Source: Chloroflexota bacterium
GTDB lineage: Bacteria; Chloroflexota; Anaerolineae; Anaerolineales; UBA11579
Assembly: GCA_013112575.1 (NCBI GenBank)
Contig: JABFGG010000005.1
Span: 149,497-213,496, forward strand
Reading direction: 5' to 3'
Length of the DNA: 64,000 bases
Shown here: piece by piece, positions 6,780-56,785 of the stretch
How the letters are laid out: every line of letters begins with the position of its first letter
Position numbering within the stretch: position 1 is the first letter of the stretch
Notes under the pieces: model-generated
The model's database searches: none
What the model was told of the DNA's origin: nothing
Seen by the model: only the letters and a program-made list of their open reading frames with translations
Made by a program: the position numbers and the translations under genes

Positions 6780-6790
6780 GATGTTTTCCT

Positions 6791-28276: not shown

Positions 28277-29113
28277 ATGGAACGTGAAAGCATCCTCATC
28301 ATTGAAGATGATGAACTTGTAGCAAAAACTATCACCCGGACACTGAAGGTTGACAACTTCAAGATTAAAACAGCCAATTCGGGGGTCGAGGGATTAAAGA
28401 TTGCACGGCGCAGTTCACCTGATCTAATCATATTGGACGTGATCATGCCTGGGATGGATGGCTACCAAGTCTGTAAAGAATTACGCGCCGACCCCATGTT
28501 GGAAGATGTCCCCATCCTTTTCCTGACAGCCAAAAGCAAACAAGAGGACAAGATCATGGGCCTGCAGGCAGGTGCCGATGACTACCTTAGTAAACCATTT
28601 AATGTAGATGAACTCTTGTTGCGCATCCAGGCCATTCTGCGCCGCTCCAAGAAGATTGAAGAAACACCGCGTCCAGGCACTAAGGCTTCTAAAGAAAACG
28701 TTTCTGGTTTCGAGAAATTCACTTCTCGGTTTTCGAACTTATTCTCAAGCGGAAATAATGGCAAGGATGCCCCTTCACCAGAAGACCAGCATCTTCTTCA
28801 AGTGAATGCATACACACTGGACAAACGCTCCTTTGAATTGGACACTCCTCACGAAGGTAACCTTTTGCTGACGCCAGTGCAATTCGATCTGATCTATCAC
28901 CTTATGAGCCATCCAGACCAAGTTTTTTCTCCTGGGCAACTTTTAGAAGAAGTGTGGGATTACCCTGACGATTCGGGTAGCCCTGACCTCGTGCGTGTGC
29001 ATATAAAGAACTTGCGCAAACGAGTTGAGGCTGACCCCTCTTCTCCCTCCTTTATCCGCACTGTTCCAGGTTATGGCTACACGATCAATTCGGCCAAGAA
29101 TGGCAGAGCATAG
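28277..29113 (+). CDS. OmpR/PhoB-family response regulator with unusually long inter-domain linker
   Basis: Receiver (DLIILDVIMPGMDG, LTAK, KPF) plus winged-helix output (LTPVQFDLIYHLM...IRTVPGYGYTI), separated by a ~70-aa Ser/Lys-rich linker. Confidence 0.85.
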   Translation: MERESILIIEDDELVAKTITRTLKVDNFKIKTANSGVEGLKIARRSSPDLIILDVIMPGMDGYQVCKELRADPMLEDVPILFLTAKSKQEDKIMGLQAGADDYLSKPFNVDELLLRIQAILRRSKKIEETPRPGTKASKENVSGFEKFTSRFSNLFSSGNNGKDAPSPEDQHLLQVNAYTLDKRSFELDTPHEGNLLLTPVQFDLIYHLMSHPDQVFSPGQLLEEVWDYPDDSGSPDLVRVHIKNLRKRVEADPSSPSFIRTVPGYGYTINSAKNGRA

Positions 29114-29121: not shown

Positions 29122-31239
29122 ATGGCTGCTGAACAAATTGCAAACACTACCGTTGAAGCTAATAAAGTTAAATTTGCCAAACTCCAAGACGCTTCAGACG
29201 ATGTCTGTGAAGTGTTGGGAGAAACGCTCGATCTACATGCTGGTCTACAATCTGCATTAGACATCAGTCTTAAGTTCATTGGAGAGGCATCAGGAGCAAT
29301 TTACGTGGGGGAGCCGGGTTACACGGCCCCAACTTTAACGGTTACCAGTAAAGCTTCCAAGGCCCTAATCATTGATCTGGAAAAATCCGAGAGTCCTCTG
29401 CGGGAAGGCATCTCGTGGACATTGGAGAATGACCTTCCCAGCCGTATAGAAACCGAAGAAGTCTCAGGAACAGTCATCCCGTTATCAACAAAGTTCGGCC
29501 CGCAGGCAGCCATGTATATTGAAGGGGCGATGCTTGATGACACCAGCATCAATGGTTTCCAAAGTATTGCCAAATCGATTGCACGCGCCATTCAAGCTCG
29601 TCGTTTGCAAATAGCAGCTATCAAACAGTACACAGAACTGGCCAATATCCTCACACTTTCGGCCAAGCATGCCCCAAATCTGGAATTTGATGAAATCCAG
29701 ACCATGATGGTCACCAGCCTGCGCCGGGCGATGGATGTTGACGCAGCGGCCATAGTACTGTTACAAGAGAATGATGAAGCCAAGAGCGGCACTAAGATCC
29801 TGGTAGGACGTAGTTCCGAAGAGACATTTTACGAAGCCATCAACCGCGAACCCAGCCTGATGGAAAAGTGCATTGAAGAAAACAAGGTGCTTTTGGTCAA
29901 CGACATCAAAGGGAACCAGGATTTTAATCCATACGTTGATGGCAGCAATTTCATCGATATTCGTTCCATGTTATGCAGCCCTCTTACCATCAACCAACGC
30001 AACTTTGGCGCCTTGTTTGTTTACAACAAACGTGTGGGACACTTCAACTCACTCGACGAAGACTTCCTGGCCTCTATGGCAACCGCCATCGCCAATATGC
30101 AACAGAACATGCAATTGATTCGCCAACTCACCCTGGCCAATGCCAATCTGGTTGCTAATCGATGGGAGTTGCTGCACTCAAGGAATACACTCAGAAGCTT
30201 GTTCGACAGTATCCCAATGTCTATGTACATCGTGGACCACAAATACCAATTGATTGCCATAAATGCCCACCGCGCCAGCCCACAGGGTCAGCACCCCAGC
30301 GACCTGGTCGGAATCCCCTGCTACCAGGGGCTCTACAATAGGAATTCGCCCTGCGACGACTGCCGCGTGGTAGAGACAATCATGACTAATGATGCTCAAC
30401 AGCGCACCTTGCGACGTTGGAATTTGGAAAGTGAGCCACTCGAACAAAATATCATCACCTACCCGATCCTTGATGAAAACAAAAAAACTGCCCAGGTAAT
30501 TGTGGTTGAGGAAGATGTGACCGAACAAAGGCAAATGGAGGCCCACCTAGCACAGTCCGAGAAACTTGCAGCTATCGGTCAATTAGCTGCCGGTCTGGCC
30601 CACGAGATCAACAACCCACTTACAGCCATAATTGCTAACACTCAGCTCCTGCAACGCCAAAAGATCAGGAATGCTGAAGTGAAGGAAGCAATCGACCTCA
30701 TCGGCACAGCCGGTGCGCGCGCCTCCCAAGTCGTACGCAACCTCCTAGACCTATCACGGCAGGAAAGCTACGAATACAAAGAGGGCGGGCTGAATGAAAC
30801 CATTGAGAAAGCCATGGCACTCCTAAAACATGAGATCGTGTCACGTCACGTCCAGATCGAGTTTGAGGCGGATGAAACTTTGGAACCGATCAATATGAGC
30901 GAAGATCATTTAGTTAGTGTCTGGCTTAATTTGATCATCAACGCTTTAGATGCTCTATCCGGTCGAGATGTTGATGCGAGTGAAGAAGCAAAAATTTGGA
31001 TACGGACCCAGCAACGCAAGAATGAAATCCTGGTTACTGTAGCCGACAACGGGACTGGTATTCCGGAAAACCAATTATCCAGGATATTCAATCCTTTCTT
31101 CACTACAAAAGACCCGGGGGAAGGCACAGGTCTAGGCCTGCCTGTCTGCCACCGCATCATCAAGCAACACGGTGGAAATATTATGGTGGACAGCGATATA
31201 GGCACAGGAACAAAGTTCACGATCAATCTCCCGATCTAA
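29122..31239 (+). CDS. cytoplasmic sensor histidine kinase (GAF-like regions, PAS with Cys motif, HisKA, HATPase_c)
   Basis: H-box LAHEINNPLTAI, N-box LNLIINALDA, G-boxes DNGTGI and GTGLGL. No TM helices. Confidence 0.85.
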   Translation: MAAEQIANTTVEANKVKFAKLQDASDDVCEVLGETLDLHAGLQSALDISLKFIGEASGAIYVGEPGYTAPTLTVTSKASKALIIDLEKSESPLREGISWTLENDLPSRIETEEVSGTVIPLSTKFGPQAAMYIEGAMLDDTSINGFQSIAKSIARAIQARRLQIAAIKQYTELANILTLSAKHAPNLEFDEIQTMMVTSLRRAMDVDAAAIVLLQENDEAKSGTKILVGRSSEETFYEAINREPSLMEKCIEENKVLLVNDIKGNQDFNPYVDGSNFIDIRSMLCSPLTINQRNFGALFVYNKRVGHFNSLDEDFLASMATAIANMQQNMQLIRQLTLANANLVANRWELLHSRNTLRSLFDSIPMSMYIVDHKYQLIAINAHRASPQGQHPSDLVGIPCYQGLYNRNSPCDDCRVVETIMTNDAQQRTLRRWNLESEPLEQNIITYPILDENKKTAQVIVVEEDVTEQRQMEAHLAQSEKLAAIGQLAAGLAHEINNPLTAIIANTQLLQRQKIRNAEVKEAIDLIGTAGARASQVVRNLLDLSRQESYEYKEGGLNETIEKAMALLKHEIVSRHVQIEFEADETLEPINMSEDHLVSVWLNLIINALDALSGRDVDASEEAKIWIRTQQRKNEILVTVADNGTGIPENQLSRIFNPFFTTKDPGEGTGLGLPVCHRIIKQHGGNIMVDSDIGTGTKFTINLPI

Positions 31240-31263: not shown

Positions 31264-31292
31264 AAAACGACGGCAAGGGCCGTCGTTTTTAT
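31264..31292 (+). terminator. intrinsic terminator after the histidine kinase gene
   Basis: AAAAACGACGGC-AAGG-GCCGTCGTTTTTAT. Confidence 0.8.
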
Positions 31293-31359
31293 ATTTAGGC
31301 CAGCTTTATCATGTCTTCACGGCCTCTTTATTACCACGTCAAATACCTGATGCTATTTT

Positions 31360-31626
31360 ATGTCTGTTCATGAAGCACCGTTGTTCAAAACGAGTGTTTG
31401 GAAAGGATTTGCTTTGATCGCAGTAACGCGTCTAAATGGCTCTAAGTTTTTCGTGAATGCGGAATTGGTCCGCACCGTGGAAGGCACACCTGACACAGTC
31501 ATCACGCTGACTACAGATGAACGCATCATCGTGCGTGACAACCCGCAAGCTGTGGTCGCAGCCATTATTGAATATCAACGCAGCGTCCGCCAGGCACGCG
31601 TAGTGGAAAAGAAGGAGTCGAAATAA
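31360..31626 (+). CDS. flbD: flagellar protein FlbD
   Basis: IAVTRLNGSKFFVNAELVRTVEGTPDTVITLTTDERIIVRDNPQAVVAAIIEY is canonical FlbD. The real start may be TTG 31414 (MIAVTRLNG), preceded by AAAGGA. Confidence 0.8.
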   Translation: MSVHEAPLFKTSVWKGFALIAVTRLNGSKFFVNAELVRTVEGTPDTVITLTTDERIIVRDNPQAVVAAIIEYQRSVRQARVVEKKESK

Positions 31627-32430
31627 ATGGATATTGCCACCATAATTGGGGTTGTCGGATCCATTGTTGTCATTGGGGTTGTTATGGTGCTGGATGGCGG
31701 CAGTCCTGCCGAATTGTTCAGTCATACTGCACCAATCTTATTGACCCTTGTAGGTTCATTATTAGCGGCAGCCTCTACCCAGGAGATGGCTACTTTAACC
31801 AGCTTACCAAAACTCTTCATGCTGGCCTTTATGGGCATCAAGATCGACTCGCAGAAAGCTATTGATGAATTAACCACAATGGCAGACAAAGCCCGCCGTG
31901 AAGGTCTGTTGGCCCTGGAAAGCGACGCTAAAGGCATTGAAGATGACTTCATGCGCAAGGGTGTCATGATGGTAGTGGATGGTGTTGACCCCTCCCAGGT
32001 AAAAGCCATCATGGAAACAGAGATCAAGCAGATGCACGAGCGCCACCAAAAGGGCATTGACCTCCTGGAAGGTGCTGGCGGCTTTGCTCCTACCTTCGGC
32101 ATTATCGGTACTGTCATGGGCATGATCGTCATCCTGAAACAATTGGATGAACCAGCCACACTAGGCAAGGCCATCGCAAGTGCATTCCTGGCTACTCTTT
32201 GGGGCTTATTATCCTCAAATGTAGTCTATATGCCCGTGGCAGGAAAACTTGCAGTCAACGATGCCAAAGAAAAAGCATACCGCCACATGATCACAGAAGG
32301 GGTATTAGCCCTCCAGGCCGGTGAGAACCCCCGCATAATCCGCGACAAGCTGAGCGCTTACTTACCCCCCAAAGCGCGTAAGAGCGAAGAAGAAGCAGGT
32401 AAAGCCCAACGTGCAGGAGCGAACGCATGA
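31627..32430 (+). CDS. motA: flagellar motor stator protein MotA
   Basis: 267-aa 4-TM MotA/TolQ/ExbB family protein. FAPTFGIIGTVMGMI. Confidence 0.9.
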   Translation: MDIATIIGVVGSIVVIGVVMVLDGGSPAELFSHTAPILLTLVGSLLAAASTQEMATLTSLPKLFMLAFMGIKIDSQKAIDELTTMADKARREGLLALESDAKGIEDDFMRKGVMMVVDGVDPSQVKAIMETEIKQMHERHQKGIDLLEGAGGFAPTFGIIGTVMGMIVILKQLDEPATLGKAIASAFLATLWGLLSSNVVYMPVAGKLAVNDAKEKAYRHMITEGVLALQAGENPRIIRDKLSAYLPPKARKSEEEAGKAQRAGANA

Positions 32431-33188
32431 GTCATGGTGGCGGTGGTGGCGATCGTTGGCTGGTCAGTTATGCAGACCTCATCACGGTGTTGATGATCCT
32501 TTTTGTGGTGCTGTATGCCATGGGTCAGGTAGATATCAAACGTTATGAACAGTTAGCTGATAGCTTAAACGCAGCCTTTACAGGCGCCCCACAACGCATC
32601 GTGGACCCTGAAATATCCACAACTGGTGGCGTAGATGACGAACTCGACGCCGCCCCCATCCTTATCCCTGAGCTGCCCGCCGCGCAAACCACAACAACTG
32701 ATATCGCTGCAGACCTCGTCAGTCTGATGGCGGGGGCGGGCATGGGTGGCGATGTTAATATCCAGGAAAACATCGAAGGTTTACTTATCTCTGTTAGTGA
32801 ACAGCTTTTGTTCGAGGCAGGCACTGCCAATCTGCAATCCCAGGGCTATCCGGCTCTCGACATTGTCTATGAAATCTTGTTGCCTTTGGACAACGAAGTA
32901 CGCATTACTGGACACACTGACACATCGCCGCCAAGGGACAGCCGCTATGCCTCTAATTGGGAATTGTCTGTAGCCCGTGCAGTAACAGTCGTGAACTATT
33001 TAGTGGCAAAAGGATTTCCCCCCGTCCGGCTGACAGCCGAAGGAGCAGGCGAATATCGCCCGCTGTACCCGGCTGACAGTGCCCAGAACCATTACAACAG
33101 CCGCGCAGATATCGTGGTAGTTTATCCAAAAACCCCGAAATTATTCGAGATTGATATTTTCGGCGGCCTCAATACCAGCTTTCCATAA
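32427..33188 (+). CDS. motB: flagellar motor stator protein MotB (OmpA-like C-terminus)
   Basis: ATGA overlap with motA. WLVSYADLITVLMILFVVL carries the conserved Asp. C-terminal OmpA-like domain (NWELSVARA). Confidence 0.9.
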   Translation: MSHGGGGGDRWLVSYADLITVLMILFVVLYAMGQVDIKRYEQLADSLNAAFTGAPQRIVDPEISTTGGVDDELDAAPILIPELPAAQTTTTDIAADLVSLMAGAGMGGDVNIQENIEGLLISVSEQLLFEAGTANLQSQGYPALDIVYEILLPLDNEVRITGHTDTSPPRDSRYASNWELSVARAVTVVNYLVAKGFPPVRLTAEGAGEYRPLYPADSAQNHYNSRADIVVVYPKTPKLFEIDIFGGLNTSFP

Positions 33189-33220: not shown

Positions 33221-33898
33221 ATGAAAAAGATGCTTCCCACCCTCAAATACTTATTCACCGGAGCAGCCGCAGTCGCTATATTGACTACGATGGGCATCAA
33301 TCTGCTAATGGCCTATATCATGTTCGCCCCAGACGACCTGCCAAAACCTTTCTATCTGGCATACCAGACCGCCGGCATGACAACCCCGCAAAGCACGGAT
33401 GCTGGTCATCAAGTGCCACATAGCGGAGACCACTCTGATACCCAGCCTGGCATCCCGACAACCATCAATTTCGATGAGGTCCATCCAGGAGAAGGCATTA
33501 TGCTCCCGACCGGATCCAAGGTAGCTAACCTGGCCGATCCCGGCGGACGCAAGTACATCAAGATCGATATCGTTCTGGAATTTGCACCCAATGATGCCAC
33601 CTACTATGAATTAGTTGTGGAATCACATTCAGCCGATAGCGGTGGCGGTGGTGGGCATGGTGGGGAGGAAACTTCTCCCCTGGAAACTTACGTTGAAGAG
33701 TTCAAAGTTGAAGTTAACGATCTGATGCCAGCCATCAATGACAGCCTACTCACATTGATCAGCAGCAAAACCTTCGAGCAGATCAATACTGCCGAGGGCA
33801 AAGAACACTTACGCGTAGAGATCATGGAGTTGGTCAATTCACGGTTGAGCGAATATCACGTGATAGCAGTGTATTTTACAGAATTCGTAGTGCAGTAA
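33221..33898 (+). CDS. fliL: flagellar basal body-associated protein FliL
   Basis: N-terminal TM helix. RKYIKIDIVLEF...HLRVEIMELVNSRL...VIAVYFTEFVVQ is a FliL pattern. Gly-rich insert. Confidence 0.8.
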   Translation: MKKMLPTLKYLFTGAAAVAILTTMGINLLMAYIMFAPDDLPKPFYLAYQTAGMTTPQSTDAGHQVPHSGDHSDTQPGIPTTINFDEVHPGEGIMLPTGSKVANLADPGGRKYIKIDIVLEFAPNDATYYELVVESHSADSGGGGGHGGEETSPLETYVEEFKVEVNDLMPAINDSLLTLISSKTFEQINTAEGKEHLRVEIMELVNSRLSEYHVIAVYFTEFVVQ

Positions 33899-33931
33899 AC
33901 AAGTAAATGTAGAACAAAAGGAAGATGGAAA

Positions 33932-34975
33932 ATGTTATCACAAGGCGAAGTGGACGCTTTATTAGAAGGATCGATCGAAATTGAAGATCGTGACGGCCAG
34001 GGTGATGTCAACCTGGCAGACATGATCAACGACGAAAAACCAAAAGCCAAAGTACAGGAAAACGACAAAAGGGTGCGCGCCTACAATTTCTGGTCGCCTA
34101 ACCGCTTTTCCAAGGAACAGATCAAGGCGATTGAGTTACTGCATGAAGACCTCGCCGAGCGTCTGTCATCCTCCTTACCTTCCTTTATCCGCACAGAATT
34201 CCGTGCGCGTGTCGTGCATATGGAACAGGGTAAATTCGGCGACTTCCTCAAAGATATGTCGGAAGAAGCTCTTTTCCACCTGATCAGCCTGGCTCCATTG
34301 CCAAGTTATATGATCACCACCATCAGTTCAGATATCAGCACATTGCTCTTAGAGTATCAGCTTGGTGGTGGCGAAAACAAGGCCAAGAAAGACCATAAGC
34401 TTACAGATATTGACCGCTCTTTGATCAAAGGCATTGTCAGTCAGATGCTCAACGACATAAAGGCGGCCTGGACAAAAGTAGCCGCAATTGAGCCTGTGCT
34501 GGAAGATAGCACAGCCAATCACCGCTGGGTGCAAATGATGATGGGTAATGATCGCATCCTGATGATCACCTTTGAAGTAGAAGTTCAGGGTGTAACAGGG
34601 GCAATGTCCATGTACCTCCCCTTCAAGACCATCAAACCCATTATGAAAGCCCTCAGCCCTCACGTTGTGCTGGCTGGGAAACGGCAACAAAGAGTAAATG
34701 AGAGCAACCAGGAAGAATTACAGGAAAGCCTCATGAAAGTGACCTTACCATTGCGGGTCTTCCTGGGTTCTACACAATTGACCGTCAATGATTTTTTGGA
34801 GATGCAGCCCGGTGACGTGTTGCGCCTCAACACCTCGGTAAACCGAGATGTCACCATGTATGCTGGCGACCGACCCCGTTTTTCAGCCCAACTCGGCAAA
34901 GTCGGCAGCCAACTTGCTGCTCAGATCACGGATGTCCTGGAGGAAGGACAACGAAGGATGAGCACAGCAAGCTAA
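33932..34975 (+). CDS. fliM: flagellar motor switch protein FliM
   Basis: N-terminal LSQGEVDALL CheY-binding motif, FliM middle domain, and C-terminal SpoA domain. Confidence 0.9.
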   Translation: MLSQGEVDALLEGSIEIEDRDGQGDVNLADMINDEKPKAKVQENDKRVRAYNFWSPNRFSKEQIKAIELLHEDLAERLSSSLPSFIRTEFRARVVHMEQGKFGDFLKDMSEEALFHLISLAPLPSYMITTISSDISTLLLEYQLGGGENKAKKDHKLTDIDRSLIKGIVSQMLNDIKAAWTKVAAIEPVLEDSTANHRWVQMMMGNDRILMITFEVEVQGVTGAMSMYLPFKTIKPIMKALSPHVVLAGKRQQRVNESNQEELQESLMKVTLPLRVFLGSTQLTVNDFLEMQPGDVLRLNTSVNRDVTMYAGDRPRFSAQLGKVGSQLAAQITDVLEEGQRRMSTAS

Positions 34976-35002
34976 ACAGCAGCCCATAAAAAAGGAACGA
35001 AG

Positions 35003-35431
35003 ATGGAAACAAATGTGGATCAAATTCAAGAAGCACAGGAAGTTCCCCAGGTACAAGAGGAACTCACCCCACCGTCAGATGAACAAGCGGCGGCCGAACC
35101 TGTGGAAGCGCCAACTCCCCAACCCGCACCAGTCCCACAACCAGCTCCTGCCGCCACCCCTGACTCACAGGGTGTGCGCATGGATGGTTTGATGGGCGTC
35201 AATCTGGACGTGGTGGTTGAGATCGGCAGGGCTCAAATGTCCATGGGTGAGATCCTGGAACTGCAAAATGGTTCCGTGGTCGAACTAGACCGCGTGGCCG
35301 GTGATGTTGTGGATGTGCTCATCAATGACAAGCTGATGGCCCGCGGCGAAGTCGTGATCGTGGATGACAAGTTTGGCGTGCGCATCACAGACATACTTTC
35401 TCGCGATGAGCCAGGGCGCAAGCACTACTAG
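35003..35431 (+). CDS. fliN: flagellar motor switch protein FliN (SpoA domain) with Pro/Gln/Ala-rich N-terminus
   Basis: VVVEIGRAQMSMGEILELQNGSVVELDRVAGDVVDVLINDKLMARGEVVIVDDKFGVRITDI. Confidence 0.9.
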   Translation: METNVDQIQEAQEVPQVQEELTPPSDEQAAAEPVEAPTPQPAPVPQPAPAATPDSQGVRMDGLMGVNLDVVVEIGRAQMSMGEILELQNGSVVELDRVAGDVVDVLINDKLMARGEVVIVDDKFGVRITDILSRDEPGRKHY

Positions 35432-35929
35432 ATGAACCCCAACAGCAAATTGCAGGTTCAGGTACTCGCCATCCTCGCACGTGTGCGCCATTGGCCGCGT
35501 TGGGCTTTATGGTCCCTGGGCTTCAGTTTAATTGCGGTCGTATGGTTGCTGGCGGCGCTTGGAGGGACCGGGCGCGAAGCCACTTCCATCAATCCTTTGT
35601 GGGTTGCCCTAGACCTGATCATCAAGCTCATTCTTGTACTCGGCTTGATCTACGGAAGCCTATATCTACTACGGCGCTGGCAGGGCAACACCCTGGCCCG
35701 CCCAGATAAGCAGGTCCGGCTTTTAGAATCTACGCGCTTATCCCCGCGCCAGGGTTTGCACCTAGTACAGGCAGGCACTCGCGTCTTGTTGATCGGGGCC
35801 ACTGACAACTCCCTTTCCACCCTGGCTGAAATCGACCAAAGCGAATTGTCCGATCCACAATTGATTTCGGCAGAGCCTTTCTCTGAAAGTCTGGCCAAGG
35901 CTATCAAGAGCGGAGATGGTGCAGCATGA
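35432..35929 (+). CDS. fliO: flagellar biosynthesis protein FliO/FliZ
   Basis: Position between fliN and fliP, with a single-TM and FliO-like C-terminus (RLLESTRLSPRQGLHLVQAGTRVLLIGATD). Confidence 0.75.
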   Translation: MNPNSKLQVQVLAILARVRHWPRWALWSLGFSLIAVVWLLAALGGTGREATSINPLWVALDLIIKLILVLGLIYGSLYLLRRWQGNTLARPDKQVRLLESTRLSPRQGLHLVQAGTRVLLIGATDNSLSTLAEIDQSELSDPQLISAEPFSESLAKAIKSGDGAA

Positions 35930-36681
35930 AACGCAAGTCCCGCCTGATCCTTATTTTGCTATTAGCCGGTTTGCTCCTGGCAGGTTGTGTTGGCAGTCCT
36001 GAGTTCGCTGCCCCCGGTGTAACCCTCACTGTCGATGGGGCTGACGAGCCTGAGCAGGTTAGCACCGGCGTACAACTCCTGGTGTTACTGACCGTGCTTT
36101 CCATGGCTCCAGCTATCCTGATCATGACCACAGGGTTTACCCGCATTGTCATCGTATTATCCTTACTGCGTAATGCCATCGGCACGCCCTCTGTGCCTCC
36201 CAATCAGGTCGTTATCGGGCTTTCCCTGCTGCTCACTTTCTTTATCATGGCTCCAGTCTACGATGAAGTAGACGAGCAAGCCATCCAACCTTACCTGGAT
36301 CAGCAAATCGATCAGGAACAGGCTTTTGAGTTAGCCAGCGCGCCCATCCGGGACTTCATGTTCGAGCAGACTAACCAGAAAGATCTGGAGCTATTCCTGA
36401 GTTTGAACAACCAGGAACGCCCGGAGACCCTGGATGATATACCTTCAGCCGTGTTGTTACCGGCCTTTGTGATCAGCGAACTGCGCACGGCCTTCACCAT
36501 GGGTTTTATGGTCTATGTGCCCTTCCTGATCATCGACATGGTTGTCTCCAGTGTGTTGCTGGCCATGGGCATGATGATGTTGCCCCCTTCGTTAATTTCC
36601 CTGCCCTTTAAATTATTGCTATTTGTGATGGTGGATGGTTGGTATCTGATCGCCCGTTCATTGTCTTTGAGTTTTTTCTAA
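35926..36681 (+). CDS. fliP: flagellar type III export apparatus protein FliP
   Basis: MTTGFTRIVIVLSLLRNAIG and FKLLLFVMVDGW motifs. Confidence 0.95.
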   Translation: MKRKSRLILILLLAGLLLAGCVGSPEFAAPGVTLTVDGADEPEQVSTGVQLLVLLTVLSMAPAILIMTTGFTRIVIVLSLLRNAIGTPSVPPNQVVIGLSLLLTFFIMAPVYDEVDEQAIQPYLDQQIDQEQAFELASAPIRDFMFEQTNQKDLELFLSLNNQERPETLDDIPSAVLLPAFVISELRTAFTMGFMVYVPFLIIDMVVSSVLLAMGMMMLPPSLISLPFKLLLFVMVDGWYLIARSLSLSFF

Positions 36682-36690
36682 CAAGGTGCT

Positions 36691-36963
36691 GTGATGACAG
36701 AGAGTTACGTATTAGGTTTAGCCCAAGAAGTGCTCATGGTCACACTGACCCTGGCCGCCCCCATTCTGCTAGTCAGTTTGTTGATCGGTAGCCTGGTGAG
36801 CCTTTTTCAGGCTGCCACCCAGATCAATGAAACAACACTTACATTCGTACCCAAGATCATTGGTATTGCCCTCGTCCTGATCGTCCTCGGTTCGTGGATG
36901 GCCCAACAATTGATCAGCTTCACCGTCAATATATTCGACGGTCTGCCAGGATTGGTGCAATAG
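36691..36963 (+). CDS. fliQ: flagellar export apparatus protein FliQ
   Basis: 90 aa. LVSLFQAATQINETTLTFVPKI. Confidence 0.9.
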   Translation: MMTESYVLGLAQEVLMVTLTLAAPILLVSLLIGSLVSLFQAATQINETTLTFVPKIIGIALVLIVLGSWMAQQLISFTVNIFDGLPGLVQ

Positions 36964-36979: not shown

Positions 36980-37876
36980 ATGCAACAAACACAAACAGGC
37001 TCCGCCCCATATTCGCAATTGCAACGCATTCTCAATAGCGTAACCGCGCTGCGCCCTTTGCCCACCAGCGCCATGCGGCTATTAAAGCTGTTGGATAACC
37101 CAAGTGTTTCCGCAGATGAAATCAGCCATGCTGTTTCGCAGGATATAGCCTTGACGGCCCACGTCTTGCGCGTGGCCAACTCGGCCCTCTTAGGCTACGC
37201 CGTTTCCAGCAATTCCGTGCAGGATGCCACCATGCGCCTGGGTTTTAAGCGGCTGCGCACGATCGTGCTGGGCAGTGTTGCCGCTGGGCCATTGACACGT
37301 CGTTTACACGGGTACCGCCTGGGTGACAATGATCTCTGGGAGCATTCTATAGCCACCGCCAGTGGGGCCAACTGGCTGGCAAGACGTTTAAACTATCCCG
37401 AATCCGAGGAAGCCTACGTAGGCGGTCTACTGCATGATATTGGCAAAGTCTTGTTGGACCAATACATGCAAAACGATTACAACCGCATCGTGGAAGTCAT
37501 GCACAAAAGGCAGATCGCTTTATGGCAGGCTGAAGAAGAAGTCTTCGGCATCGAGCATGCTGCCGTCGGCGGCATGATGGCCGAAAAGTGGCAGTTCCCG
37601 GCCAGCCTGAAGAACACCATCCGATCCCATCACGTACCGGCTCTGGCAGAATCCCACCAAAAACTGGCCGCCATCGTCAACATCGCCAATGCTTTTGCGC
37701 CCGGCGATACCTATTCATTTACAGGGTTGGATGGGCGTCATGTGCATCCATCCTCCATGCGTGTACTCGACCTCAATCCACAGGACATTGAACGGCTGGA
37801 GAATGAGATGAACAAAGCCCTGGGCCTCAACGAGGAATTTGTGCCCAACACGCGTCACGTCACAGGCAGTCTCTAA
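36980..37876 (+). CDS. HDOD domain signalling protein
   Basis: LPTSAMRLLKLLDNPSVSADEISHAVSQDIALTAHVLRVANSALLG...GGLLHDIGKVLL...FGIEHAAVGGMMAEKWQFP is a canonical HDOD pattern. Confidence 0.85.
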   Translation: MQQTQTGSAPYSQLQRILNSVTALRPLPTSAMRLLKLLDNPSVSADEISHAVSQDIALTAHVLRVANSALLGYAVSSNSVQDATMRLGFKRLRTIVLGSVAAGPLTRRLHGYRLGDNDLWEHSIATASGANWLARRLNYPESEEAYVGGLLHDIGKVLLDQYMQNDYNRIVEVMHKRQIALWQAEEEVFGIEHAAVGGMMAEKWQFPASLKNTIRSHHVPALAESHQKLAAIVNIANAFAPGDTYSFTGLDGRHVHPSSMRVLDLNPQDIERLENEMNKALGLNEEFVPNTRHVTGSL

Positions 37877-37877
37877 C

Positions 37878-38264
37878 ATGTTCACTTCAAGCAACAGAAA
37901 ATCAGCATTGCTGGTCACCAAGAATCCCGCCGAACGCGATCTATTGAAGTTGGCGCTGCACCGCATTGGCTACCATGTCCAAACCGCGGACCATGCTTAT
38001 CAAGTCATGGAAAAAGTGGAACACTCAAAACCCGACCTGCTCGTTTTGGATCTATTCCTGTCACAGACCAATGGGCTTGAAATGCTCAAGCAAATCGAGG
38101 ATAGCGTATCCCTCAAATCGATGTATGTCATCGCCATGACCGCTATGGCCTTCCCAGAAGTCGTGGAGCAAGCAAAAGTTGCTGGTGCTAATGACATTTT
38201 GCTCAAGCCCTTCAGCACCGATCTGCTCGTGCAGAAAGCACGCCGCTTGCAGACTGTCGTGTAA
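37878..38264 (+). CDS. stand-alone receiver domain lacking the acidic Mg-binding pair (pseudo-receiver?)
   Basis: ALLVTKNP replaces the usual DD pair. The phospho-acceptor position is retained (LLVLDLFL), as are T (AMTA) and K (LLKPF). ATG 37878 lies 1 nt after the HDOD stop. Confidence 0.75.
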   Translation: MFTSSNRKSALLVTKNPAERDLLKLALHRIGYHVQTADHAYQVMEKVEHSKPDLLVLDLFLSQTNGLEMLKQIEDSVSLKSMYVIAMTAMAFPEVVEQAKVAGANDILLKPFSTDLLVQKARRLQTVV

Positions 38265-38515
38265 AACTTTGTTTAAGCTTGAAGTCGTGTTCACACAGAA
38301 ATCCTTGCTACCCAGGCTCTACTTCTTGCACCTCTTGCCCAACTTTGACAAAGTTTAAAGCGTTCCGTTTTTTATCTCTATAATTTATCGAATCCACATA
38401 GCGTTCCGCTAAGTGTCGGCCATCTGGGGGAATTCTTTAGCACAAAAACTCGTATTTACGGACAATTTATCACAGCTTCACCACAGCTTTATTCCTCAAT
38501 CCACAAGCTGCAATT

Positions 38516-39298
38516 ATGCTACTTGCAGGTTCAAAAATGTTAGTTTCTATTGCCCAAGCGCAACTCTTTTTCCTGGCTCTCACCCGTACACTGGCTATCC
38601 TGATTCAGGTGCCCGTGCTGGGTGGGCGTCTGGTTCCCAATATCGTCAAGGTAGGTTTGGGTATCTCACTGGCGGCCATCATGTTGACCTGGCAACCCCT
38701 GCCCCCGGGTGTTGAAGGTATGCCTTTCATGGCTTTCACCTGGGCCATCGGTCGTGAGCTCCTGATCGGTACACTGGCAGGTTTCGCCGCCGTGCTGACC
38801 TTCGGGGCCATCTCCGTTGCAGGTCACGTTATGGAACTGGGCAGTGGCTTTTCTGCCGGGCAGATCCTCAATCCCGCTTCCGGAGAGAGTGGCTCGGCCT
38901 TGAGCAATTTCGTGGTCATCACCGCTACTCTCCTTTTCCTGGCGATCAACGGCCATCACTTGTTCCTGTTCGGATTACAACGCACCTTTACCATCTTGCC
39001 ATTGAATCAACCCCTGCCCGAACTATCTTTAGAAACCCTGCTTAACATGACGGCGCATTTGATCACAGCAGGCGTTCAGATAGCTTTGCCAGTGGCCGGG
39101 GCTGTGCTCCTCACTGACCTGACCCTGGGCTTGATCGCCAAGGCTGCCCCCCGTGTACAGATCTTCTTTCTGGGCTTTCCTTTAAAAGTAGGCATTGGCC
39201 TGCTTGTGCTCAGTCTGGCACTGGTCATCATTTTCCCTCAATTCACTGTCATTTTCGAAAAGCTGGGAGAGCGCACCTTGGCGCTGATCGGCGGATAA
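38516..39298 (+). CDS. fliR: flagellar export apparatus protein FliR
   Basis: 260-aa polytopic protein, FliR-like (FFLALTRTLAILIQVPVLGG...). The start could also be ATG 38537. Confidence 0.9.
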   Translation: MLLAGSKMLVSIAQAQLFFLALTRTLAILIQVPVLGGRLVPNIVKVGLGISLAAIMLTWQPLPPGVEGMPFMAFTWAIGRELLIGTLAGFAAVLTFGAISVAGHVMELGSGFSAGQILNPASGESGSALSNFVVITATLLFLAINGHHLFLFGLQRTFTILPLNQPLPELSLETLLNMTAHLITAGVQIALPVAGAVLLTDLTLGLIAKAAPRVQIFFLGFPLKVGIGLLVLSLALVIIFPQFTVIFEKLGERTLALIGG

Positions 39299-39299: not shown

Positions 39300-40361
39300 A
39301 TGGCAGAACGCACCGAAGCCCCAACCCCACAACGTATTCAGGAAGCTCGCCGAGAAGGCCGAGTTGCGAAAAGCACGGAATTGAATGCGGCCATTGCCTT
39401 GTTAGTGGCAGCCTTTCTTTTGCGCGCGCCTGGTTCGGGCCTCTTGGATGCTCTCAAAGATGTCATGACCACGGCCATCATCGACCTCCCCAATGTGACC
39501 GGCGGCCAGGTCGCCCCATCTGAAATGCTTTTCAACACAGGTATGCAGTTGGGCCCCAGTATCGCCATCCTCATCCTGGGCTTACTGGCAACCGGCGTCG
39601 CAGTTTCCCTCGGTCAAACAGGTTTCCTGTGGGCCAGCAAACAGATCAAAGTGGATTTCGATCGCATCAATGCCCTCAAAGGCTTCCAACGATTGTTGTC
39701 CCTGAACGGGCTGGTGGAGCTGGTCAAGGCTGTATTCAAACTGGCCGTGATCCTGTGGGTCGCCTATAACTATTTGGAACCACGCGTTCACGAGTTGATC
39801 GTCTTGGGCCAGATGGACTTCGGTGCTGCTCTTGGACATTGGGCTGAACTGGCCTACTCTCTGATATTGCGCGTGGGCGGTGCTTATTTGGTGCTCGCCG
39901 CGGCAGACTATGGCTATCAACGCTGGCAATGGATGCGTTCTATGCGTATGACTAAGCAGGAGATCCGCGAAGAAGCCAAACAACGCGAGGGCGATCCTAT
40001 GTTACGCCAGCGCATTCGCGGGCAACAACGTCAATTTGCCATGCAACGCATGATGGCCGAACTCCCTAAAGCCGACGTGGTCATCACCAACCCCACCCAT
40101 CTGGCCGTAGCCATTCGCTACACATCAGAGGACATGGGCGCACCCAAAGTGATCGCCAAAGGCGCACGCAATATCGCCAAACGCATCAAGGAAGAAGCGC
40201 GCAAACTTGATATCCCGGTAGTCGAGAACAAACCCGTCGCCCAGGCCTTATACAAGGCCGTCGAAGTCAATCAGGAGATCCCTCCGGACATGTACATCGC
40301 CCTCGCCGAGATCCTGGCCTACGTATACAACCTGCGCAAGGTGCGCAGCGTAAGGGCATAG
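39300..40361 (+). CDS. flhB: flagellar export switch protein FlhB
   Basis: MAERTEAPTPQRIQEARREGRVAKS N-terminus. NPTH autocleavage site in VVITNPTHLAVAIRY. Confidence 0.95.
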   Translation: MAERTEAPTPQRIQEARREGRVAKSTELNAAIALLVAAFLLRAPGSGLLDALKDVMTTAIIDLPNVTGGQVAPSEMLFNTGMQLGPSIAILILGLLATGVAVSLGQTGFLWASKQIKVDFDRINALKGFQRLLSLNGLVELVKAVFKLAVILWVAYNYLEPRVHELIVLGQMDFGAALGHWAELAYSLILRVGGAYLVLAAADYGYQRWQWMRSMRMTKQEIREEAKQREGDPMLRQRIRGQQRQFAMQRMMAELPKADVVITNPTHLAVAIRYTSEDMGAPKVIAKGARNIAKRIKEEARKLDIPVVENKPVAQALYKAVEVNQEIPPDMYIALAEILAYVYNLRKVRSVRA

Positions 40362-40376
40362 AGGAAAATAGAAAGC

Positions 40377-42464
40377 ATGACAACTGCCACGCAAGAAACC
40401 TCGGCCATCGGCCTGCGCAAATTGTTCAGCTCACAAGACGCTGTCATGGCGCTTGCCGTGGTCGTCATCCTGGGCATGATGCTGGTGCCTTTGCCGCCCT
40501 TCGGCATCGATCTGCTGGTCGCATTTAATCTGGCCATCGCCCTGGCTGTCATGCTCATCACCATGTATGTACGCCGGGCCATGGATTTCGCCGCCTTCCC
40601 TACCGTATTGCTGCTCATCACGCTTTTCCGCCTTGGCATCAACGTCGCTTCTAGCCGCCTGATCCTCTTGAACGGTAATGCCGGTAAGGTCATCGACACC
40701 TTTGGTAATTTAATCGTCGGCGGCAATTACATCGTTGGTGTGGTCGTCTTCCTCATTTTGATGGTCATCCAATGGGTGGTGATCAACTCCGGTGCAGGCC
40801 GTGTGGCCGAAGTCGGCGCTCGCTTTACTTTGGACGCCATGCCCGGCAAGCAGTTAGCTATCGATGCCGACCTCAATGCCGGCATCATCGACGAGCAGGA
40901 AGCCAAATTACGTCGCCGGGAAATCCAGATCGAAGCAGATTTTTACGGGGCCATGGATGGCGCCAGCAAATTCGTCAAAGGTGATGCCATCGCTGCCCTC
41001 ATCATTATCCTGGTGAACGTTATCGGTGGCTTTGGCATCGGTGTCATCCAGCGTAACCTCGATTTCCTGGGCGCACTGCAAAGCTACACATTGCTGACCG
41101 TTGGCGCAGGACTGGCCATTCAAATTCCTGCACTACTCGTGTCCGCCTCTGCGGGTCTGATCGTAACCCGTTCATCTTCGGATGCCTCATTGGGCAACGA
41201 CCTCTCCAAACAATTAGCCAATGTCAATGTATTGGTGGGAGGCGCCATCATCATCAGCCTGGTAGCTCTCATCCCTGGCATTCCCAAGTTGCCCTTCCTG
41301 CTGGTTGGTGGGCTATTTGGTGGCGCGGGCTATTTTGTCTGGCAAGGTGAGCAACAACCCGTTGAAACGGTCACAGAAGATTTCCTCCCCATCAGCAAAG
41401 AACCGGAAACACCGGAAGACATGCTACCCATGGTTGTCGTTGACCCGTTGGAATTGGAAGTAGGCTATGGTTTGATTCCGTTGATCGAGGACGGCACGGA
41501 AGAGAACCTCTTACAGCGCATCTCCGGCATCCGGCGACAGATCATGCGGGAGATGGGCTTGATCCTGCCCATCGTGCGCGTACGCGACAACCTGCAATTG
41601 CAGCCCCAAACCTATCGCATCAAAGTGCGCGGCGAAGAAGTCGCTCGCAGCACCATTAAGCTCGGCCATTACCTGGCCATCCCCGGTTCGGGCATTGAAG
41701 AGACCCTGCAAGGCGAGAAAACCACCGAACCCGCCTTTGGTTTGCCTGCAATCTGGATCCGCGATGCTGACAAAGGCCGCGCCGAAATGATGGGCTATAC
41801 CGTGGTCAGCCCCATTGCCGCTATCAGCACGCACCTCTCCGAAGTCGTGCGCGGCTACGGTGGCGACATATTATCCCGCCAAATGCTGTCAGAAATGATC
41901 GAGCAGCTCAAGCTCAGTACCCCCGCGGCCATTGATGGCCTGATACCCGATGTACTCACCCTCGGCGAAGTCCAGGCCGTCCTGCGCAACCTCCTGCGCG
42001 AACGGGTGCCCATCCGCGATCTGGGCGGCATCCTGGAGATCTTGGCCAATACCGCCAGCGTGACCCGTGACCCCAACATATTGGCCGAGGCCGTGCGTCA
42101 GAATATGGCCCGCACCTTATCCAACCAGTACAGCGACCCGGATGGAGACCTGCACGTTTTTACACTGGCTCCCCAATTGGAGGATGTCCTCAAAAGCGCC
42201 CTGGCATCCAATGAGAATGGTGAGATCGCTTTCTCGGTAGATGCACAGACCGCCCAGGGTATTCTTACCCGCCTTGGCCTGCAAATGGAAGAAATGGCCA
42301 AACAGGGTTTCCCGCCTGTGATCCTGGTGCCCCGTGAACTGCGTCTGGCCCTGCGTCGTCTGGTCGAAAAATCATTGCCCAGCCTGGTTGTGTTGGCCTT
42401 TTCGGAGATCAGCAGCCAGACCAAGGTGATCGCACATGGGGCTGTCGAGCCGCTTGGAGTGTAA
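40377..42464 (+). CDS. flhA: flagellar export gate protein FlhA
   Basis: 695 aa. FHIPEP-family motifs (RFTLDAMPGKQLAIDADLNAG, GAMDGASKFVKGDAIA). Confidence 0.95.
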   Translation: MTTATQETSAIGLRKLFSSQDAVMALAVVVILGMMLVPLPPFGIDLLVAFNLAIALAVMLITMYVRRAMDFAAFPTVLLLITLFRLGINVASSRLILLNGNAGKVIDTFGNLIVGGNYIVGVVVFLILMVIQWVVINSGAGRVAEVGARFTLDAMPGKQLAIDADLNAGIIDEQEAKLRRREIQIEADFYGAMDGASKFVKGDAIAALIIILVNVIGGFGIGVIQRNLDFLGALQSYTLLTVGAGLAIQIPALLVSASAGLIVTRSSSDASLGNDLSKQLANVNVLVGGAIIISLVALIPGIPKLPFLLVGGLFGGAGYFVWQGEQQPVETVTEDFLPISKEPETPEDMLPMVVVDPLELEVGYGLIPLIEDGTEENLLQRISGIRRQIMREMGLILPIVRVRDNLQLQPQTYRIKVRGEEVARSTIKLGHYLAIPGSGIEETLQGEKTTEPAFGLPAIWIRDADKGRAEMMGYTVVSPIAAISTHLSEVVRGYGGDILSRQMLSEMIEQLKLSTPAAIDGLIPDVLTLGEVQAVLRNLLRERVPIRDLGGILEILANTASVTRDPNILAEAVRQNMARTLSNQYSDPDGDLHVFTLAPQLEDVLKSALASNENGEIAFSVDAQTAQGILTRLGLQMEEMAKQGFPPVILVPRELRLALRRLVEKSLPSLVVLAFSEISSQTKVIAHGAVEPLGV

Positions 42465-42471
42465 GAGAGCT

Positions 42472-43656
42472 ATGTTAGTCGATACCCAAACCCAATTCCC
42501 CACCCATTCCTTCCAGGCCGAAAATATGTTGGCCGCCCTGGAAAAAGTGCGCATGGAGCTTGGCCCTGAGGCCATCATCGTATCCACTCGCAAAGTTGCC
42601 AGCGGCCCGGCCTGGCAAGTATGGAAAAAACCGGTCGTAGAAGTGGTTGCCATGGGTACTGGGACCCCAGCCCCATCCCAGCAAAGCGTGCCGGTGGAAA
42701 CCTCTCCTGCGATTGTTCCATCACCGCCTGAACCATTGGTGGAAACTCAACCTATCCCGGTAGAAGAGATTGACACCACTGTAGAGCAGGCCATTGATAT
42801 CGCCGAAAAGGCTGTCTCTAAAGAACTGGAGACAACAAGGTCCAAGAATCCTTACCGCATGCTGGGAGACAGCAACAGCCCGCTATCCAGCGTCAAACAA
42901 CGCCTTCTGGAACAGGGCGTGGATGGAGACCTGGTCGAAAGCCTTGCGCGTGTTTGCTTACGCAACTTCAGCCAGCAAGCCCTAACCGACCCACTGCGTG
43001 TCAACGAATACATCCAGCAACAATTGGCCGTCAAGATCCGCAGCCTGTCCCCCCAGGCAGTGGCTGCCAGTCAGGTTGTTAGCCTGGTAGGCCCCAGTGG
43101 GGCGGGCAAGACCAACACCACCGCCAAACTTTTGGCCTATTACCAACAGGAAAGCAAAAAAGAATTGCACTGGCTCAGCGCCGATACTATCCGTGCCGGG
43201 GCCATAGCCCAGGCTCGCGTCTATAGCGAGACTCTCGAGATCCCCTTGCAGTTGGCCTATGGCCCCAGTGAAGCCGCAGACATCTGCAAAGAAGCCAAAG
43301 GCGGTCTCACGCTGGTCGATACACCTGGCTTCACCCCCACTCGCGAGAGCAGTGTCATCCGTATCGGCGACATGCTCAGTGCGCTGCCCCAACAGATCAC
43401 ATTGCTCGTCGTATCTGCCACAGAAAAAGAACAAGACGTTATGGCTGCCATTTCGGTGCTGCGTCCTTTCAATCTGAAGGCCATGATCGTCACCAAGATG
43501 GACGCCACCGACCATTTTGGCAGCATTTTTAATGCTGCCTGGCGCAGTCACCTGCCCCTCGCATTTCTAACCTCGGGGCCAGACGTGATCGACGACCTGC
43601 GTCCCGCAGACCCGCGCGAGTTCGTGGGCACATTATTCGGAATTAGGGCCAGCTGA
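42472..43656 (+). CDS. flhF: flagellar SRP-type GTPase FlhF
   Basis: G1 GPSGAGKTNT, G3 DTPG, G4 TKMD. The ORF extends to 42436; the start is uncertain. Confidence 0.85.
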   Translation: MLVDTQTQFPTHSFQAENMLAALEKVRMELGPEAIIVSTRKVASGPAWQVWKKPVVEVVAMGTGTPAPSQQSVPVETSPAIVPSPPEPLVETQPIPVEEIDTTVEQAIDIAEKAVSKELETTRSKNPYRMLGDSNSPLSSVKQRLLEQGVDGDLVESLARVCLRNFSQQALTDPLRVNEYIQQQLAVKIRSLSPQAVAASQVVSLVGPSGAGKTNTTAKLLAYYQQESKKELHWLSADTIRAGAIAQARVYSETLEIPLQLAYGPSEAADICKEAKGGLTLVDTPGFTPTRESSVIRIGDMLSALPQQITLLVVSATEKEQDVMAAISVLRPFNLKAMIVTKMDATDHFGSIFNAAWRSHLPLAFLTSGPDVIDDLRPADPREFVGTLFGIRAS

Positions 43657-43991
43657 TGAGTGAAGAACTACACAACGAAGAGCTTCAAGCTGAAGAGGAA
43701 CAACCCCAACATCTGCGGGAATCACTTCCGCTACTGCTCGAAAGCACTTACACCATCGCCAAACTGATTGTGATCGTGGCCGGGGCTTTGACGGCAGGTT
43801 TGTCCATCTTTGCAGGAGCCGATCTTTTACACACCGTGCTACGCACTGGTACAACCCTCCTAGGGATAGGTGTCATGATGTGGCTGATCTTCTGGTTCGT
43901 GACCAAAGCCTCGTGGCAGGCTGTCAAAGCCGAACTGAAGGCAGCCGCGGACAAGCTGGAAAACGAAACTACAGAGAGTTCTGAGGCCTGA
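43656..43991 (+). CDS. hypothetical two-TM protein in the position normally held by flhG
   Basis: 111 aa. Acidic N- and C-termini with two hydrophobic helices. TGATG overlap with flhF. Confidence 0.5.
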   Translation: MSEELHNEELQAEEEQPQHLRESLPLLLESTYTIAKLIVIVAGALTAGLSIFAGADLLHTVLRTGTTLLGIGVMMWLIFWFVTKASWQAVKAELKAAADKLENETTESSEA

Positions 43992-56321: not shown

Positions 56322-56785
56322 CACGCGTTCCCCAGGTTGGCTTCCAGCGATTGGCGGAAGGCCTTGGCAATATAAAGGTCATCCTGCAATGCTGCCTCCT
56401 GGGCAGCCTGCTTGGCATCGACCTCGTCCTGCTGGTTCTGTTTGAGTTTAAGCAGCACTTCTTCGTCTTGTTTGGCTGCCGTGACTTCATTGCGCTTGGC
56501 CTGTACCTGCATCTTTAGTTCTTCCAGCGCATGCTTTTGCTGTTCGATCTGTTCAAGCACACGTTGCAGGTTGGCACGCGTGTGGTTCAACTTGTCCATA
56601 TTGATCTCACCAGACTGCATCTCCGCCAGTTGTTGGTGTAGGTCAGTTTGTTGCTGCTCCAAAAAGATGAGATACTCTTTGGCTTGCTGCTCCTGTACAA
56701 GTAAGCGGCTGAGTAATATCTCAAGGGCATCCACGATATTGTGGCGATAATCTAAAACAGGTTGTAAAGAGAATTTAATGGCCAT
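56321..56785 (-). CDS. fliJ: flagellar export chaperone FliJ
   Basis: [15 protein letters not shown] followed by a coiled coil. Position after fliI. ATG 56785 lies 11 nt after AAGGAGG. Confidence 0.8.

Follow-up and report, generated by a model that had tools for sequence, protein, structure and literature searches.

Why should the genes for the flagellar export gate, fliP, fliQ and fliR, be separated by two genes of the signalling type? The question is raised by a 64,000-nt stretch of DNA (the window; contig JABFGG010000005.1), which carries a large flagellar gene cluster from a metagenome-assembled genome (MAG) of the Chloroflexi (Anaerolineae). An initial annotation had placed genes for a stand-alone HDOD protein and a single-domain receiver (REC) between fliQ and fliR, and a map of open reading frames (ORFs) combined with Pfam searches bore this out. 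The HDOD start codon follows the fliQ stop after 16 nt, and that of REC follows the HDOD stop (TAA, 37874–37876) after 1 nt. With slightly more confidence than doubt, we regard the pair as a signalling module accessory to the Anaerolineae flagellum and specific to this clade, similar to a split REC-HDOD regulator, and not as a part of the export gate. Its position reflects an operon boundary that collects signalling genes and shows no specific link to FliPQR. The domains themselves are known, as is the generic annotation 'HDOD domain-containing protein'; what is new is a split HDOD and atypical receiver, resident in a flagellar operon and conserved across the Anaerolineae. A literature search found no paper describing this arrangement, and none on HDOD together with fliQ or on fliR among the flagellar genes of Anaerolineae.

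Genes and control elements at the fliQ-fliR junction

The gene order was compared across related loci by two routes. All of the HDOD orthologues whose context was examined (11/11, 42–89 % identity) lay directly after fliQ; these contexts came from L001–L003 of a genome collection and from contigs of P0105, P0106, P0093, P0046, P0115, P0065, P0002 and P0003. A contig scan seeded with HDOD gave, among the matches listed, three Anaerolineae loci and 77 paralogues from other phyla. In an unbiased survey that avoids HDOD seeding, metagenome contigs were scanned with a FliR alignment and 80 loci were annotated with hidden Markov models. Both fliQ and fliR were present in 40 loci, in the arrangements fliQ-HDOD-REC-fliR (27), fliQ-REC-fliR (5), fliQ-HDOD-fliR (3) and fliQ-fliR (5). 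HDOD and/or REC occupied the junction in 35 of the 36 Anaerolineae-like loci, and only L126 had neither. The surveyed loci were not de-replicated, although they yielded 48 distinct receiver sequences. The arrangement spans the Anaerolineae as a clade: the synteny survey of the junction that had been proposed at the outset finds the same genes in dozens of related contigs. This recurrence, like the low non-synonymous divergence of both genes from a sister contig (see below), speaks against a chance pair of ORFs.

The other four loci with adjacent fliQ and fliR (L160–L162 and L168) were the most distant, with FliR identities of ≤40 % and the two genes 14 nt apart or overlapping; the FliR of L161 shares 92 % identity with a protein whose entry names a 'Chloroflexi bacterium' as its source. 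Because these distant Chloroflexi loci keep fliQ and fliR contiguous, the split is derived within the Chloroflexi. The premise that fliP, fliQ and fliR are almost invariably contiguous holds for this outgroup but is too strong as a universal rule, the three genes being scattered in some proteobacteria.

Further signalling genes occur at the same place. L151 reads fliQ-HDOD-REC-HD-GYP-fliR (HD-GYP at 4112–4855), and L157 has two receivers, an HD-GYP gene and a divergent GGDEF gene before fliR (1075–1719; 1805–2884, minus strand). A methyl-accepting chemotaxis protein (MCP) of dCache-HAMP type follows REC in L092 (2473–4848) and L097 (1082–3457), and two receivers stand at the junction in the P0046 contig. 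In L133 (437–4601) and L134, a che operon encoding CheD, a CheY with the canonical D-D pair, CheB-CheR and two CheX proteins lies directly 5′ of the element before fliR described below. Across Anaerolineae-like contigs the junction acts like a landing pad where genes of motility signalling settle. Outside the Chloroflexi, two of the 77 HDOD paralogue loci among the matches listed lie within flagellar or chemotaxis clusters, one in a KSB1 MAG (L015; flhB-flhA-flhF-flhG-fliA-x-HDOD-HK, HDOD at 5977–6918) and one in an unclassified bacterium (L026; motAB-cheW-MCP-HDOD-DUF2802-flgF, HDOD at 6010–6864). The association of HDOD with flagellar genes arose more than once.

That the pair splits the triad is real, but it is only part of the picture, since REC is not adjacent to fliR: the first description passed over a non-coding gap of ∼270 nt containing a promoter-like element. 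The mechanical fliR ORF (ATG 38516) would end the gap at 38515. The gap probably extends to 38536 and the true start is probably ATG 38537, because the sequence MLVSIAQAQLF encoded there matches the N-termini of orthologous FliR proteins, M(L/I)(I/V)S(I/V)AQAQLF; the upstream ATG overlaps a −10-like hexamer. Across loci, the gap before fliR measures 60–300 nt.

The element was first revealed by aligning the REC-fliR spacers of eight loci. In the consensus of 54 unique copies, anTtTTTACGcnatnTTTAGnnnngCTTCAtcnnnccTTTACTGAca-N17-gTATcCT, four boxes recur with a period of exactly 11 nt, the last overlapping a cTGACA hexamer at a distance of 17 nt from the TATcCT hexamer. An nhmmer profile placed the element directly 5′ of fliR in 60 of the 64 related loci with enough upstream sequence, and the only loci missed were L126 and the four contiguous outgroup loci, that is, those without the split. 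Its consensus geometry suggests a sigma-70-type promoter with phased upstream operator boxes. Four direct repeats with an 11-nt period that overlap the −35 hexamer resemble the operator arrays of the OmpR/PhoB family. A scanner for textbook sigma-70 promoters found none in the gap, the element having emerged only through the cross-locus alignment. Assignment to sigma-28 (TAAA-N15-GCCGATAA) or sigma-54 was rejected, as the sequences do not fit. A riboswitch or other structured RNA in the gap was also rejected, with no relevant Rfam match at E ≤ 1 and a fold energy no better than that of shuffled sequence (z = 0.26).

Since a gap with a conserved promoter-like element precedes fliR-flhB-flhA-flhF, the break between fliQ and fliR can be read as an operon boundary. 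HDOD and REC most likely complete the flbD-motAB-fliLMNOPQ unit as its final cistrons, with fliR heading the next one. The extra junction genes (L084, L091, L092/L097, L151 and L157) always insert between REC and the element, which stays beside fliR. In the window, weaker copies of the element with the boxes in the same order precede flbD and the unit containing fliF to fliJ (Table 1), and another lies upstream of flbD in L001 (510–575). The phased boxes may therefore define an Anaerolineae flagellar regulon, and the shared element is the first clue we found to flagellar gene control in this class.

Immediately 5′ of the flbD operon, the window encodes an OmpR/PhoB-type response regulator (28277–29113, plus strand) and a GAF-PAS histidine kinase (29122–31239, plus strand). 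These form a candidate master regulator of the phased boxes. In L001 (1–498), the C-terminus of a histidine kinase likewise ends just ahead of the box element of flbD; L002 differs.

The HDOD protein and its receiver

The HDOD protein of the window matches the Pfam HDOD profile (PF08668) with 186.6 bits against a cut-off of 22.9, covering profile positions 2–196 of 196. It also exceeds the thresholds of Pfam HD (46 bits versus 22) and NCBIfam HDIG (48.4 versus 27.6; E = 6.3e-13). H122, H152, D153, K156, H193, H217 and H218 are invariant in an alignment of 32 orthologues. A profile search of PDB sequences gave 3HC1 from Geobacter as the best solved relative (E = 7e-45), a structure with two iron ions bound through five His and one Asp (PMC12075610). 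All six of these ligands align with invariant residues of the window protein (H122, H152, D153, H193, H217 and H218). The AF2 model is all-helical with a pLDDT of 85.7, and its top 12 Foldseek matches in the PDB are HDOD entries only (3HC1, 9QZK, 3M1T, 3MEM, 3I7A, 3P3Q/3LJX and 1VQR), the HD domain of PgpH being a weak match behind them. MmoQ (3LJX, 3P3Q) appears among both the fold and the sequence matches.

Loss of key HD catalytic residues was a trait in the original description of the HDOD domain, as cited in PMC4114195, and the initial annotation had likewise treated the protein as a catalytically inactive HD relative. No such loss is seen in the window HDOD, and the invariant His/Asp set, the alignment with 3HC1 and the passed HD and HDIG thresholds lend that description no support. 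Judged by these residues, the protein belongs to a subgroup with a predicted intact metal site, like 3HC1 and DVU0330 of Desulfovibrio. It does not resemble an HD-GYP protein: there is no HD_5 (PF13487) match at E ≤ 0.01 and no GYP motif, H217-H218 being followed by VPALAESHQ. For comparison, the true HD_5 proteins of L151 and L157 score 1e-42 and 1e-36. Just before the first metal-binding His, the residues G111-Y112-R113-L114 (window 37310–37321) show little or no variation across the 32 Anaerolineae orthologues and are missing from the aligned 3HC1 sequence. This GYRL motif may be an orthogroup-specific surface or loop feature.

Database searches returned 440 HDOD homologues at E ≤ 1e-5. The best 120 of the 440 are proteins of 261–326 aa that contain no domains besides HDOD/HD and whose named members are from Anaerolineae or Chloroflexi. 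The window protein is 100 % identical to an entry named 'MAG: HDOD domain-containing protein [Chloroflexi bacterium]'.

The receiver scores 76.3 bits against PF00072 (threshold 30.2). Its residues were compared, by alignment to Escherichia coli CheY, with those of 60 receivers adjoining fliR in the surveyed loci; CheY numbering is used for the family. Position 12 is Glu in 42/58 (T14 in the window protein), position 13 is Asp in just 14/59 (K15) and position 14 is Asp in 52/59 (N16). The remaining active-site positions are Asp57 in 55/59 (D58, at the end of β3), Ser/Thr87 in 60/60 (T88), Phe106 in 58/60 (I107) and Lys109 in 58/60 (K110). The window receiver thus lacks both the acidic Mg-binding pair at positions 12 and 13 and the complete canonical CheY set (D12, D13, D57, T87, Y106, K109), and the earlier reading of its sequence, ALLVTKNP in place of the acidic pair with the Asp, Thr and Lys kept, agrees with the CheY alignment. 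On residue content the family is atypical, with E-x-D replacing D-D and the phospho-acceptor set retained.

Within the family, the window receiver and that of its sister L087 (T-T-N at positions 12–14) are the only copies with Ile at position 106, and both are without an acidic residue at positions 12–14. Because the acidic pocket (T-K-N) and F106 have both been lost, conventional Mg-dependent phosphorylation is doubtful in the window lineage, as had been suspected from the window sequence. The β4-α4-β5 segment is the most conserved part of the receiver family (0.62–0.72 versus 0.39–0.57 elsewhere), and this is the usual partner-binding face of receivers. We also considered K15 as a mimic of the activating D13K substitution of CheY; the idea was dropped, as the 89 %-identical sister has Thr there and the Lys is not conserved.

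Possible roles of the pair

The mechanism we favour is that of a split REC-HDOD (or RpfG-like) response regulator, made along with the stator, switch and gate proteins. The HDOD protein would bind two metal ions, probably iron, in its pocket and would be the subunit that senses or that binds a partner, influencing motor function, or assembly, by way of protein contacts. The receiver would tune or relay the HDOD signal through its conserved β4-α4-β5 face. Most relatives (E-x-D, D57, S87, F106, K109) probably retain a receiver that phosphorylation can switch, while in the window lineage (T-K-N, I106) this input may have been lost, leaving the receiver as a phosphorylation-independent partner. 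A role in regulating motility, which the initial annotation had also put forward, remains plausible for a pair that is real and conserved. The split-regulator reading fits the genetics that link HDOD proteins to motility (PMC11813219; GsmR in PMC4114195), and the adaptor role of SadB (PMC12075610).

Several known proteins share features with the pair. PSPTO_4229 of Pseudomonas syringae DC3000, like the window protein a stand-alone HDOD (about 273 aa), lowers swimming both when deleted and when overexpressed, has a fitness profile that clusters with che genes, and is proposed to act by protein-protein interaction (PMC11813219). GsmR of Xanthomonas is a REC-HDOD regulator of flagellar and motility genes that lacked phosphatase and phosphodiesterase activity (cited in PMC4114195). 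DVU0330, also of REC-HDOD type, has its HD residues intact and shows weak phosphodiesterase activity on bis-pNPP (PMC4114195). GsmR, DVU0330 and MmoQ of Methylococcus contain the same two domains as the window pair, but as a fusion with REC N-terminal, whereas the window has two ORFs, HDOD then REC. The HD site of GsmR is degenerate and that of the window HDOD intact, while it is the window receiver that is without the D-D pair. RpfG-type REC-HD-GYP proteins likewise combine a receiver with a metal-binding domain of the HD superfamily, and the junction in L151 and L157 places a stand-alone HD-GYP behind receivers; the window HDOD has neither the GYP motif nor an HD_5 match.

The nearest structural relatives differ in other ways. 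3HC1 (NP_953345.1, Geobacter sulfurreducens, GSU) is a stand-alone protein of about 300 aa like the window HDOD (Foldseek E = 2e-10), to which it is about 26 % identical, and the GYRL loop of the Anaerolineae orthogroup is absent from its aligned sequence. We know of no flagellar context for 3HC1. SadB of Pseudomonas (YbaK-HDOD, 9QZK), the second-best Foldseek match, is an adaptor for Lon-dependent proteolysis of AmrZ and showed no binding of c-di-GMP when assayed by Biacore (PMC12075610). It shares the HDOD fold and provides a precedent for an HDOD adaptor in the choice between motility and biofilm; however, it has an extra YbaK domain, an occluded pocket and one of the five His, whereas the window HDOD has all the ligands and no extra domain.

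A number of observations weigh against the split-regulator interpretation. No HDOD-REC fusion occurs among the best 120 of the 440 homologues, and HDOD-only and REC-only loci exist, so the two genes are not obligate neighbours. The C11 peptidase gene of L084 and the MBL/LTD gene of L091 show that the slot admits unrelated genes too, and position alone is thus not proof of a motility function. The promoter assignment is one of consensus resemblance, and the fliR copy in the window is a weaker match (E about 1e-8). No canonical terminator was found after REC in the gap; transcription may therefore read through into fliR, and the two-operon model falls short of proof. Between the window and L087, the 89 %-identical sister contig used for a test of selection, synonymous sites approach saturation, which makes the dN/dS ratios of about 0.04 for HDOD and about 0.06 for FliM rough. 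The proposed mechanism, finally, was drawn from gene context and homology alone.

Two other readings, both of which we hold to be possible though rather improbable, concern the chemistry of the HDOD protein. It could be an active metal-dependent phosphodiesterase that acts locally on c-di-GMP, pGpG or a relative, sparing the motor a PilZ-type brake, with REC regulating it. This is a live rival to the split regulator: the H...HD...H...HH set is fully invariant, the HD and HDIG thresholds are passed, the fold has a weak likeness to the HD domain of PgpH, HD-GYP and GGDEF genes appear at the same junction in L151 and L157, PAS-GGDEF and PilZ genes lie upstream in the window, and DVU0330, with its intact site, is weakly active (PMC4114195). 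On the other side stand the missing GYP motif and HD_5 match, the inactivity of GsmR (PMC4114195) and the lack of c-di-GMP binding by SadB (PMC12075610), and our literature search found no HDOD protein reported to hydrolyse a natural nucleotide. HDOD and HD-GYP also coexist in L151, which argues that they are not redundant. To about the same modest degree of probability, the HDOD protein could be a di-iron sensor of oxygen, redox state, NO or a nucleotide messenger that acts, with or without the receiver, directly on the stator, the switch or the export apparatus.

A direct checkpoint on the type III gate (FliPQR, FlhA, FlhB), with the pair placed where it is for assembly or co-translation, is the role that had first been proposed, and we consider it unlikely. 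The tight spacing after fliP-fliQ would suit it, as would the fact that HDOD, wherever found at the junction, is the gene immediately 3′ of fliQ. The pair, however, closes an operon that includes the genes for FlbD, MotAB, FliL, FliM and FliN, so adjacency does not single out the gate, and fliR, on the far side of the gap, has a conserved element of its own. For neither protein is a membrane segment predicted, nor does either contain a type III-related domain. HDOD-only, REC-only and empty junctions exist, the same slot elsewhere holds HD-GYP, GGDEF, MCP and che genes, and the HDOD paralogues of other phyla adjoin motAB-cheW-MCP or fliA and not gate genes. A checkpoint on the gate has therefore found no specific support.

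It is very unlikely that the receiver is simply the ordinary CheY of the operon, binding the FliM N-terminus after phosphorylation by CheA, with HDOD as an unrelated passenger. It is a single-domain receiver whose PDB matches include CheY and CheY-like proteins (1e-8 to 1e-12), and the FliM N-terminus, MLSQGEVDALLEG (LSQxExDALL-type), resembles the CheY-binding N-terminal motif. Bacillus subtilis cheY, which lies in the fla/che operon between fliY and fliZ, offers a parallel as a single-domain receiver gene in a large flagellar operon beside switch and gate genes. Its operon position differs, though, and its product has the canonical D-D, D, T, Y and K where the window has T-K-N and I106. Moreover, Asp at position 13 is scarce in the family, the window receiver has no CheY-specific NCBIfam match, a canonical D-D CheY is encoded separately in the che operon of L133, and no che genes, including cheA and cheW, were found among the window ORFs scanned.

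Equally slight is the chance that HDOD and REC are hitch-hikers at a permissive insertion site on an operon boundary, with functions unrelated to motility: the peptidase and MBL/LTD genes and the empty L126 junction would allow it, but HDOD and/or REC persist in all but one Anaerolineae-like locus across roughly 45–55 % protein divergence, the spacing from fliQ is tight, the other inserts are mostly motility-signalling genes, and non-synonymous divergence is low, like that of core flagellar genes. Between the window and L087, HDOD and REC have diverged to an extent comparable to FliM, FliN and FliQ. For REC, dN is 0.085 and pS 0.74, and this low non-synonymous against near-saturated synonymous divergence indicates that the receiver is maintained by selection; its interpretation as a decaying pseudogene was rejected on the same grounds.

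HDOD is a widespread signalling domain; genetics tie PSPTO_4229 and GsmR to motility, and SadB serves as a proteolysis adaptor. Here a whole class of Chloroflexi has a stand-alone HDOD with an apparently intact metal site hard-wired into a motor/switch/gate operon, usually with an unusual receiver. The natural HDOD-only, REC-only and empty variants, together with the HD-GYP, GGDEF and MCP additions, form a comparative series on HDOD function that points to the motor and switch proteins and the receiver as candidate partners. The residues of interest are the five His and one Asp, the GYRL loop and the β4-α4-β5 face of the receiver. The di-iron sensor reading, if true, would give the first defined biochemical role for HDOD and a new class of flagellar regulator, in a monoderm phylum. 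Practical follow-through is limited by organisms that are hard to grow.

The flagellar cluster of the window

On the plus strand, the cluster runs OmpR-type regulator, GAF-PAS histidine kinase, hairpin with T-run, flbD-motA-motB-fliL-fliM-fliN-fliO-fliP-fliQ-HDOD-REC, gap, fliR-flhB-flhA-flhF; after flhF come a 111-aa ORF, a FliA/WhiG sigma factor gene, rod genes, flgN, flgK and flgL. The minus strand carries rod genes, fliF, fliG, fliH, fliI, fliJ, an SLT transglycosylase gene, fliK, flgD and flgE. Features around the junction are collected in Table 1.

Table 1. Positions in the window of the genes and control elements flanking the fliQ-fliR junction
Feature	Position	Strand	Evidence
Hairpin and T-run after the histidine kinase gene, ahead of the flbD copy of the element	31268–31292	+	
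Weak copy of the element upstream of flbD, same box order as the fliR copy	31285–31365	+	nhmmer E 0.013–0.3, according to model and search space
flbD, 70 aa, TTG start; first gene of the upstream unit	31414–31626	+	Pfam FlbD 4.6e-25
motA and motB (stator)	31627–33188	+	Pfam MotA_ExbB 2.5e-28; MotB_plug, OmpA
fliL, fliM, fliN	33221–35431	+	Pfam FliL, FliM, FliMN_C
fliO, fliP, fliQ (export gate; fliP 35926–36681, fliQ 36691–36963)	35432–36963	+	Pfam FliO 1.3e-14, FliP 1.3e-82, Bac_export_3 1.3e-26
Stand-alone HDOD protein, 298 aa, ATG start	36980–37876	+	Pfam HDOD 4.5e-55, HD 7.7e-12
Single-domain atypical receiver (REC), 128 aa, ATG 37878	37878–38264	+	Pfam Response_reg 2.7e-21
Non-coding spacer between REC and fliR	38265–38536	+	Rfam, fold and terminator checks
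Promoter-/operator-like element: four TTTA/TTCA boxes at an 11-nt period, then −35-like and −10-like hexamers	38451–38528	+	Spacer alignment, nhmmer
fliR (probable start); first gene of the unit fliR-flhB-flhA-flhF	38537–39298	+	Pfam Bac_export_1 1.7e-53; N-terminus compared with orthologues
flhB, flhA, flhF	39300–43656	+	Pfam Bac_export_2 1.7e-118, FHIPEP 1.6e-242, SRP54 2e-30
Third copy of the element, upstream of the rod gene-fliF-fliG-fliH-fliI-fliJ unit	62410–62456	−	nhmmer E 1e-4 to 3e-3

No match to FlgH or FlgI (L and P rings) was found among the flagellar-cluster ORFs scanned (∼31400–63986), a scan that did not systematically cover ORFs of <110 aa, and the fliF-fliJ operon includes the SLT transglycosylase gene (55731–56324). 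Both findings fit a flagellum of monoderm type. Two minus-strand ORFs (25758–26483 and 26512–27522) lie about 1–3 kb 5′ of the regulator-kinase pair ahead of flbD; they encode a PAS-GGDEF diguanylate cyclase, followed by a 241-aa protein with a C-terminal PilZ domain in a YcgR/MotI-like layout. These genes suggest c-di-GMP control of motility in this organism.

The 111-aa ORF between flhF and the FliA/WhiG sigma factor gene (43656–43991, plus strand) has no Pfam or NCBIfam match. In many clusters, including L015, the slot after flhF is occupied by the MinD-like flhG, and no FlhG was seen in the window. A 439-aa ORF between flgL and flgE (50515–51834, minus strand) likewise has no Pfam match. 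Away from these genes, two tandem paralogues of ∼700 aa (8521–10575 and 10733–12892, plus strand) have an unusual domain set of CAP (cysteine-rich secretory), LysM and aminoglycoside-phosphotransferase-like kinase, and seem to have no connection with the flagellar cluster.

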